IMG/VR virus record: IMGVR_UViG_2639762982_000006
DNA: 7,374 bases
Direction: 5' to 3' (one strand)
Source: a virus
Taxonomy: Duplodnaviria; Heunggongvirae; Uroviricota; Caudoviricetes
In this document: one piece after another, positions 1,693 through 4,600 of the stretch
How positions within the stretch are numbered: position 1 is the first letter of the stretch
Layout: each line of letters starts with the position of its first letter
Position numbers: made by a program

Positions 1693-4600
1693 TTAACAGA
1701 TTCTACGAGTTGTCATTTGTGACAGTATGCTCGCAATCGTAGTGATTACTACCACCAACTGCTAGCTTTCTTCTCTCTAGCTTTTCCTTCGCTTTGCAGT
1801 AAATCTTTACTTCCTGTAGAAATATTTCTATTTGCATCAGCCTCAGACTGAATTACATCTGTCTTAGCTGCTCTCTCCTTCAACTCCTGCTCTATAAAAT
1901 CGTTTTCTCGCTGGACACGAGCCGCTTTTGCTTGCAGTTCGAGTTTCATGCTTTCGAGTTGCAGCTTGCGAAGCTCATCCTCATAAGCTTGATCTCGCTT
2001 CTTGTCATTTGCTAGCTCGGCTTCTCGTTTCGCTCTACGTTCATTTTCTGCAGCAACACGCTGTTTTTCGCGTGCAGCAGCGGCAGATGCTGCTTTTTCT
2101 CTTCTAATACGTTCAGCTTGTGCTTGTTGGCGAATAAGTTCTTTTCTGGCATCCTCAGCTTGCTGCTCTTTAGCTCGCCCTTCATTTTCCGCTTGAGCAA
2201 TAGCAGCAATTTGACTTTGCAACGAGTTAGCCAAGGCAGTGCCTACACTAAACGTAGAAAAGATTAGAAATAAAATAATTTTATTCATAAATTATTTCTT
2301 TTCTGGACAAGTAGCATTTGGCTGAATTCGAGTTTCATTATCTTTAGTTGAAATAAGCACAGCAAGCCCCGTTGTAAACTGGCATGCTTTACCAACTTGA
2401 GTTGAAGTGAACACCTTAGTTCCTTCTTTATAAGTCAGTGAAACACCTTCAACAATTGTTTTATCACTAACCAAAGAACCAGCCGCTGCACCAAGAGCCG
2501 CACCACCAGTACCGCCAGCTACAGCACCCAGTGTCGATGTGCCTTTAACATTATAACCGGCAACGCCCCCAGCAACAGCTCCCAGTACCGCACCAAATGT
2601 CTGTGCCGCTTCTTTATTAGCTTTATTATCAACTTTCACTTTAGCTGGAAGCACAGAGATAATATTGACTGTCTTTGTTTCCTGCTTCGAATTCAATTGA
2701 GCGGTATCATAAACATCGGCAGCATAATCAGCACCGCTAGATTGACACCCAGAAAGAAGAATTGCAGATACAACAAGAGCGCATAAAGTATACTTTTTAG
2801 ACATAAGAATCATCCCAGAAAAACAAAAACCGGCGAGAAGTTACCACGAGAACGGAAAGTAAACAAGAATACTCCCATTGACTTATATCAATTAATCAAC
2901 TTTTTATAAGCTATCCCTAACTTATTGTGTATAGCTGAAAAGTCAGAGACAAGTTCACCATCTGCATTATTTCTTAAGTTAATAGTTTATTGCTAACTTA
3001 ATTTATGTATCGACTATTGATATCCATCTTAAAGTTACAATATCCATCTGCATTATTTTTCATCACAAATAATATATCTATTGCACGACACTAATCTGCT
3101 CTAATAAATTTGTATTTTTAAGTCGCGAATGCTATCTTTTTGCATCATATTGACCTTTTAATCGTTCAGGCTTATAGTTTCGCCGTCGTAGCAAATTCTG
3201 CGACCGGGTTTAGCAGCCTGAATACTTACGCGGACAACCGCAGATTTCCGATATTGCGGTATTTTTGTGTCCGTAAACCACGTTACGCCCGAATTATGGT
3301 GGGGCGTGATGGGGAGGCTTCGGCCTGCTGGTTTCGTAAGTGCCAGTCTGCTAACCCCGTCACGTCCTGCCACCTGTTTAGCAGCGGGTCGCAGGTTGTT
3401 TATCAACTTACGAGGCCGTAACTATGGTTAATGCCAATCCTTGCGCACGCCAAGAATTCATCTGGCGTTTCTATTCCTGCAAAAAACACCACTATCACTT
3501 CGTCATCGCAGCAACAGAAGACGAAGCACGCTCTCAATTGCCTGATGGCCCCTGCATTTTTACTGCCCGTTTTTCAACTAACTCGCGCAATTCACTTAGT
3601 TACTGGAACCTCCCCTTCTCTGCCGACGTTCAGGGGGTTTTATGAAAAAACCTCTCGTCACCCGTAATGACATAGCCGAAGCGATCGCCCTGCATACTGC
3701 CTGTATGCCGACACGGGAGATCCCCGGCGCAATTGCCAACTATTTCATGATAACCAGACGTTTTTATACCCGAACAGATAAGGCTGTGATCAACAGGCTA
3801 CTGATAGCCGAGATCAGGGATTATTTGATTGAACAAGGACGTCTACGTTACGCAACGGTGGCAGCAGAAATGAGAAAGGAGGCACATAGAATGACCAGTA
3901 ATAATTTGAATGTTAAAAAACCAGCATCTGTTGCTTCAGCTACGCCATCACCAGCTGTGAATGTTATCTCCAACACTGGAGACACAATCGACAGCCAGAC
4001 GCTGTTAAAGATGGTCAATGAAGCGCGTAAGTTATGTGGGGAACCAGAGGTTCGGAACAACAAATTCATCAAAAAAATACTCGACGAATTAGAAGGTGAG
4101 GACGGTTACACAAAAAGTGCAACCGTGCCGCCAGGTGGCGGTACGCCTATGGTTGTCATAACCATGACCTACAAACAAGCCCTGCGAGTCGCCGCGCGCG
4201 AGTCAAAAGCAGTCCGCCGTTCGCTGATCGACAAACTGGAAGAATTGCAGCAGGCAAACTCCCCTGCCCCATCGATCCCCCAAACATTACCAGACGCTCT
4301 ACGCCTGGCTGCCGAGTTGGCAGAACAGAAAATGCAGTTGGAACAACAGCTGGTGGCCGCAGCCCCTAAAGTCGATTTTGCCGACCGGGTATCAGCGGCT
4401 AATGGAATCCTGATCGGGAACTTTGCAAAGGTCGTTGGACTTAAGCAAAACGCCCTTTTCTCATGGTTGCGCCAGAACGGCATTCTCATGGCTTTTGGTG
4501 CGCGCAAAAACGTACCGCGCCAACAGTACATCAACGCCGGGTATTTCACGGTGAAAGAAGTGGTGCTGGATGATGAAAATGGCTACCAGATACGGCTGAC

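Follow-up and report, generated by a model that had tools for sequence, protein, structure and literature searches.

An in-frame internal start in the antirepressor gene of a P1-like phage-plasmid very probably represents the ant2 initiation region of the immI operon

The stretch of DNA analyzed here, hereinafter the window (7,374 nucleotides (nt) of the IMG/VR virus record IMGVR_UViG_2639762982_000006), is 100% identical over its whole length to positions 58282-65655, reverse strand, of the Escherichia coli plasmid pSvP1_F (NZ_MN510446.1), a P1-like phage-plasmid from a porcine enterotoxigenic E. coli (ETEC) strain (Venturini et al. 2019; PMC6906374). The window consists of the immI region and the lytic replicon of such a phage-plasmid, with the gene order C4 RNA, icd, ant, kilA, repL, as identified from Rfam, NCBIfam, Pfam, and the P1 annotation. 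Inside the antirepressor gene ant, a perfect Shine-Dalgarno (SD) sequence precedes an ATG that is in frame with the full-length open reading frame (ORF). We conclude that this site is very probably the ant2 initiation region, from which the nested, in-frame product of the P1-type antirepressor gene in the c4-icd-ant1/ant2 immI operon would be translated. The analysis behind this conclusion established the sequence anatomy of the site, its orthology, its conservation, and purifying selection on both parts of the gene.

Read directly from the sequence, the site consists of the SD AAGGAGG (3876-3882, + strand), the 8-nt spacer CACATAGA (3883-3890), and the ATG at 3891-3893, exactly where an earlier, sequence-only reading of the window had placed the SD and the start. 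The ATG lies 249 nt, or 83 codons, into the ORF of ant1, the full-length antirepressor of 347 amino acids (aa) (3642-4685, + strand), and is, accordingly, codon 84 of 347. Translation from this codon to the stop shared with the full ORF (4683-4685) gives a 264-aa product, ant2 (3891-4685, + strand), which is the protein devoid of the N-terminal 83 residues that had been proposed. In the ant1 frame, AAGGAGG spells codons K79 and E80 and the first base of A81. The motif AAGGAGG-N4-10-ATG has a single match in the window, both strands included, where 0.10 is expected; the heptamer by itself is unremarkable, with 0.70 occurrences expected per window by chance. Such within-window statistics are only suggestive for the motif, and the real support is comparative. 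No site on the + strand of the window is predicted to pair more strongly with the 3' end of 16S rRNA than the ant2 SD (-11.6 kcal/mol); the next-best in-frame ATG, GTG, or TTG inside the ORF reaches only -6.1 kcal/mol. The surrounding 101 nt fold weakly (-8.5 kcal/mol vs a shuffle mean of -14.6; z = +2.3), with folds of equal or greater stability in 199 of 200 shuffles, and a search for a consensus structure at the ant2 start found none. Together with the comparisons presented below, these features give the site the properties of functional internal initiation, namely, an SD and a start that are conserved beyond the need of the amino acid sequence, fixed spacing, and low local structure.

In a BLASTP comparison, the product of the full ORF matches P1 Ant1 with 322/348 identities (93%) over residues 1-347. 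At the DNA level, a megablast search against phage genomes yielded 97.3% identity to three Punavirus records and 94.7% identity to reference P1 genomes, in both cases over approximately 3400-4750 (3412-4750 for P1), with the annotated icd, ant1, and ant2 features under the match. The P1 record AF234172 places ant1 at 48688-49731 and ant2 at 48937-49731, the product lengths (347 and 264 aa) and the offset of 249 nt both agreeing with the window, and the record X15639 includes a ribosome_binding_site feature at 774-780 followed by the ant2 coding sequence (CDS) from 789, homologous to the window site. The sequence AAGGAGGCACATAGAATG is the same in the window and in P1, and the pairwise alignment shows no difference over the 22 nt that run from the SD to the codon after the ATG. 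The P7 record describes ant2 as 'contained within ant1 and translated in the same frame', ant2 having the same coordinates relative to ant1 in P1, P7, and the window; the notes in AF234172 state that the products antagonize C1 via an Ant1/Ant2/C1 complex, the notes in the P7 record likewise have an Ant1/Ant2 complex inactivating C1, and the literature describes the antirepressor as an Ant1/Ant2 heterodimer that does so (PMC8546580; PMC8198154). The P1 experiments are cited here via curated database annotations and secondary papers. The operon itself has the composition that characterizes the P1-type gene: a C1 operator, the C4 RNA with its a and b targets, and an icd stop codon that overlaps the ant1 start. 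We regard the locus as the P1-type ant1/ant2 gene itself, a matter of orthology rather than analogy, and the earlier proposal that two in-frame isoforms would be made as in the case of P1 Ant1/Ant2 appears well supported by the identity to P1 and the curated ant2 start.

To assess the conservation of the start, 86 related loci were collected, and the 62 distinct P1-like sequences among them were aligned from icd to the ant stop; a scan of genome contigs yielded only 4 loci, scans of IMG/VR being far more productive. AAGGAGG is unchanged in all 62 sequences. The spacer is always 8 nt long, though four of its bases vary, and the start codon is ATG in 56 sequences and GTG in the other 6 (L043, L047, L049, L075, L077, and L079). 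Upstream of the ant2 start, 60 of the 62 sequences have an open ant1 frame with no indels. In the remaining two, a lesion abolishes only the Ant1-specific part and leaves ant2 intact: a homopolymer run of L054 is longer by one A, and codon 64 of L080 is a stop. These lesions could be either sequencing errors or natural variants; along with the GTG starts, they could represent variants with an altered isoform ratio, if they are not errors of sequencing.

A more divergent comparison comes from a paralogous second immI module. Scanning IMG/VR with an approximately 63%-identical cluster representative of the N-terminal extension, we obtained 80 loci (L089-L168; for example, L089 1017-2613), many of which sit on contigs that also bear a canonical ant (L012, L058, L043, and others). 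Besides the c4-a1b1 targets and the C4 RNA, this complete module has an icd-like gene and an ant1-like gene (344-372 aa), and in one example it is located between pacB and c1. Four of the 80 fetched loci were not recognized; in all 76 that were, AAGGAGG, 8 nt, and ATG occur in this order at codon 84, in the form AAGGAGGCACA(C/T)AGAATG, even though the N-terminal extension of the paralog has only 67% DNA identity and about 63% protein identity to that of the window. In an alignment of three sequences, AAGGAGGCACA ranks among the three longest stretches shared by all, and a single mismatch separates it from AGAATGA. The third, synonymous positions of the AAG and GAG codons are invariant across the 62 orthologs and the 76 paralog loci. 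The middle domain of the paralogs is often another, Bro-N-like domain, and the nested start seems to have outlasted both sequence divergence and domain swapping. Because the diversity of the orthologs is low, it is on this paralog comparison and on the P1 experiments that the case leans.

These observations bear directly on the alternative that survives best, although we consider it highly improbable, namely, that only the full-length protein is made, with AAGGAGG simply resulting from the Lys-Glu-Ala codons or acting, at most, as an SD-like pause site inside the gene, and Met84 being an ordinary internal methionine. The chance frequency of the heptamer is compatible with such an explanation, as is the single 347-aa CDS in the source RefSeq record; furthermore, K-E-A-H-R-M is conserved as protein, so that amino acid constraint could explain part of the DNA conservation. 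However, the fixation of the synonymous positions of AAG and GAG amid 67% surrounding identity argues against a full-length product alone, and so do the sole change seen at codon 84, from ATG to GTG, which is still a start codon, the constant spacer length in an unusually unstructured region, and the two products and the Ant1/Ant2 complex, which the curated P1 and P7 records as well as published work describe. The annotation of a single CDS in the source record nonetheless weighs against the ant2 assignment, along with several other points. At least one AAGGAGG-N4-10-ATG match is found in 17 of 200 shuffles, making the motif only mildly unexpected in the window alone. The low diversity of the orthologs (synonymous polymorphism, pS, of about 0.06 in the N-terminal extension) renders the invariance of 7 nt weak when taken alone. 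That this plasmid would produce two proteins is something we infer from orthology and conservation, and the hairpin that is predicted to couple ant1 to icd (see below) is based on only two lineages and one compensatory pair.

The selection regime speaks to the reality of the longer isoform. The ratio of nonsynonymous to synonymous polymorphism (pN/pS) is 0.25 for the 83 Ant1-only codons (3642-3890, + strand), which are confined to the P1 lineage, compared to 0.27 for icd and 0.35 for the Ant2 part; within the latter, the linker right after Met84 is relaxed (0.66), whereas the KilAC domain is tightly constrained (0.10). Thus, the Ant1-only codons are under purifying selection and, because they are, both isoforms appear to be real. 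The converse alternative, that only the short protein is made, with the gene starting at 3891 and the 83 upstream codons representing an over-extended ORF call across an icd-ant untranslated spacer, is marginally less probable still: it can draw on the canonical, optimally spaced SD at 3891 vs the short spacing and buried SD at 3642, on the alignment of distant homologs only 3' of residue 107-110, and on the confinement of the L054 and L080 lesions to the upstream part, but is contradicted by the pN/pS of these codons, which is near that of icd and the rest of ant, by the nearly universal preservation of an open, indel-free frame among the orthologs and its retention in the paralog at 63% protein identity, by the invariant ATGA overlap with icd, and by the experimental description of P1 Ant1 in the curated records and the literature.

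The two proteins of the ant1/ant2 reading would differ in domain composition. The KilAC (ANT) domain (Pfam PF03374) occupies aa 234-336 (E = 5.2e-31), and alignments of distant phage antirepressors begin at residue 107-110, that is, inside Ant2. Because the distant antirepressors align only from about this point, Ant2 appears to represent the common antirepressor core, consisting of the middle domain and KilAC, and Ant1 the same core with an added N-terminal module of the P1 lineage. The 83-residue extension has no match in Pfam or NCBIfam, and among 1.84 billion proteins, it is represented by 17 cluster representatives, in all of which it is N-terminal in antirepressor-like proteins or fragments. 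A comparison of the Ant1 sequence with the PDB likewise gave no match. The single-sequence AlphaFold model of Ant1 (mean predicted local distance difference test score, pLDDT, of 42; predicted template modeling score, pTM, of 0.28) is too poor for use; at this low confidence, it hints at a four-helix N-terminal extension and a disordered linker at residues 87-117.

The ant1 start looks weaker because it overlaps the upstream icd gene, which encodes a 73-aa cell-division inhibitor (3424-3645, + strand; NCBIfam NF033153 Icd-like, E = 3.3e-14, in agreement with the source record and the alignment with P1 icd). The icd stop TGA and the ant1 ATG share the sequence ATGA (3642-3645), and this junction is invariant among the aligned orthologs. 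The ant1 SD, AGGGGG, is only 4 nt away from the ATG and would be masked by a predicted hairpin (3604-3642, + strand, up to the A of the ant1 ATG), in which CCUCC in the 3' end of icd pairs with GGGGG of the SD. The RNAalifold consensus hairpin has 9 pairs, one of them compensatory, and is shared by the two paralog lineages, and the single-sequence fold likewise buries the ant1 SD. The sequence-only reading had rated the internal ribosome-binding site (RBS) as much better than the one at 3642; as far as anti-SD pairing is concerned, the difference largely vanishes (-11.6 kcal/mol for ant2 and a nearly equal -10.1 kcal/mol for ant1), and it is the 4-nt spacing and the predicted hairpin at the ant1 site that make the claim partly right. 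The short spacing, the SD hairpin, and the ATGA overlap fit translational coupling of ant1 to icd. In agreement with such coupling, a note in the P1 record AF234172 states that icd is 'apparently required for expression of ant', and the literature describes both the need of icd for ant expression and the repression of Ant synthesis by C4 RNA (PMC8546580, PMC8198154, PMC8201110).

From these features, we infer a scheme in which one mRNA would give rise to two proteins, Ant1 (347 aa) from 3642 and Ant2 (264 aa) from 3891. Given the weak, close SD of ant1, masked by the hairpin at the icd 3' end, the synthesis of Ant1 would be coupled to icd translation: ribosomes finishing icd would open the hairpin and reinitiate at ant1. 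Ant2 would be initiated independently, at the perfect, unstructured AAGGAGG-N8-ATG, whenever the mRNA exists. By orthology with P1, the complex of Ant1 and Ant2 may then bind and inactivate the C1 repressor. In the lysogen, both isoforms would be silent through control of the whole transcript, with C1 acting at the operon promoter/operator and C4 RNA blocking the translation of icd. Biere, Citron and Schuster are said to have found in 1992 that a block of icd translation leads to premature transcription termination upstream of ant, that is, to polarity.

The elements that would exert this control all lie on the + strand upstream of ant. A C1-repressor operator-like site 5' of c4 (3095-3111), which matches the operator consensus with 2 mismatches and aligns with the annotated P1 Oc4, is the homolog of P1 Oc4/Op51. 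It is followed by the a1/b1 targets of the C4 antisense RNA (3172-3224; Rfam RF03163 c4-a1b1, 55.3 bits, above the gathering score), the C4 antisense RNA itself, a secondary immunity repressor of icd and ant (3292-3377; Rfam RF01695, 70.8 bits; aligned with the annotated c4 of P1 and P7), and the a2/b2 target region over the icd RBS (3378-3423, with approximate bounds derived from the alignment to the P1 a2/b2 annotations). The C4 loops and both target pairs differ from those of P1 in a fully compensatory manner. The a site of the window, TAGCAG, pairs with CTGCTA of C4, as in P7, and the b site, ACTTACG, with CGTAAGT, as in D6; the corresponding a and b sites are TGACAG and GTTAGTG in P1, and TAGCAG and GATTGTG in P7. 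The window, then, is a fourth a/b combination and would probably be heteroimmune at immI to P1, P7, and D6. Across the fetched loci, at least 6 b' loop types occur in combination with two a' types. The ant2 SD region was also considered as a target of C4, given that the nearby GCAGCAG resembles an a site, and was dismissed: this sequence is the same in P1, the a site of which differs, so there is no covariation.

Many P1-like phage-plasmids carry a second and, sometimes, a third complete immI-like module, and wherever both C4 loops are readable, the b' loops differ between the modules of one contig. The differing loops suggest orthogonal antisense control of several antirepressors. It is tempting to speculate, although we would put this forward only tentatively, that the nested Ant1/Ant2 design is a portable module, in which the N-terminal domain, the SD-N8-start, and the icd-coupled start are kept, while the downstream domains are swapped, and which is duplicated to two or three immI modules, each with its own C4 specificity. 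Under this speculative scenario, the ATG/GTG alternation and the knockouts of Ant1 alone might tune the Ant1:Ant2 ratio, with the isoforms reading different signals, which could be icd translation for Ant1 and the mere presence of the mRNA for Ant2. For one part of the idea, the existence of additional icd-ant copies, there is a published precedent (PMC6906374).

Downstream of ant, a second C1 operator (4763-4779), identified by an operator match, precedes kilA (4849-5649), which combines KilA-N and KilAC domains, and repL (5679-6524), assigned by alignment with the P1 annotation. The KilAC domain of kilA and the linker that precedes it (IPQSLPEALRLAA(D/E)LAEQK...) are shared with ant, KilA-N being in front instead, so ant and kilA are two KilAC paralogs in tandem, each with its own C1 operator. 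On the - strand at the other side of the operon are tub (480-1091) and pmgC (1102-1668), both recognized by alignment with the P1 annotation, and two other ORFs (1749-2813, - strand) take the place of simABC, the superimmunity genes of P1. The product of one is a secreted, coiled-coil-like DUF5384 protein of 179 aa (phrog_1094). The other (2292-2813) was called as an ORF of 173 aa, 170 aa (2292-2804) being annotated in RefSeq; its product is lipoprotein-like, with a glycine-rich segment, and the PHROG label of phrog_1277, 'DNA methyltransferase', is doubtful. At the 3' side of repL (6494-7157), the window has, in place of P1 rlfA/rlfB, an ORF for a small membrane protein (phrog_3772) and a type I toxin-antitoxin system, hok/sok, with the sok RNA at 6833-7007 (Rfam, 114.9 bits) and a Hok-family ORF at 7002-7157. 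Transposase genes are found at both ends of the window, of the IS91 family on the left (1-185) and of IS421 (IS4-like) on the right (7351-7374), and matches of other P1-like plasmids begin only at position 371. This bounding by insertion sequences (IS) fits the rearrangement by IS elements that has been reported for this part of the pSvP1 backbone.

The nested design of P1 ant1/ant2 has been known since 1989, has its place in the curated annotation of P1 and P7, and is not new. The ant2 start looked like a discovery because the source plasmid record, annotated automatically, lacks it; what was found is the rediscovery of a textbook feature of P1 immunity in a P1-like plasmid, and for the window, it matters little. 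The practical value is in annotation, given that most automatically annotated P1-like plasmids list the long CDS only, missing ant2. A modest addition is that the internal start is invariant in the orthologs as well as in a 67%-identical paralogous module, whereas the Ant1-only domain is confined to a lineage and, because of these two features, selection for both isoforms is better supported.

Comparison with other phage antirepressors places the locus at different distances from known systems. In phage D6, the antirepressor that accompanies icd is a Roi-like protein of 235 aa; D6 was tried as a single-isoform comparator and set aside given that this antirepressor is unrelated (BLASTP E = 0.34) and, hence, uninformative on the ancestry of the nested start. 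The single-product KilAC/ANT antirepressors and Roi-like proteins of lambdoid phages, Shiga toxin (Stx) phages, and many other phages share the KilAC domain (PF03374), and the antirepressors of some Stx and APSE phages share the middle domain too; all these single-product antirepressors lack the 83-residue N-terminal extension. The second immI-like modules of P1-like phage-plasmids, such as those between pacB and c1 in RCS47 and pTZ20_1P, are closer, with the same architecture, the 83-codon N-terminal extension, and the predicted SD-masking hairpin at the first start, but differ in the sequence of the extension (about 63% identity), in the often swapped middle domain, in the C4 loops, and in the genomic location. 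Closest of all are ant1/ant2 of P1 and P7 (immI operon; alias rebA/rebB), which are orthologous to the genes in the window, with the same lengths, the same SD-spacer-ATG, the same ATGA overlap, and the same flanks, the C4 RNA and icd upstream, and kilA and repL downstream. The differences from P1 amount to 26 amino acid replacements in Ant1, mostly in the linker and the middle domain, the swapping of the neighboring sim and rlf genes for other genes and, with respect to both P1 and P7, another combination of C4 and target specificities, the a site being that of P7 and the b site that of D6.

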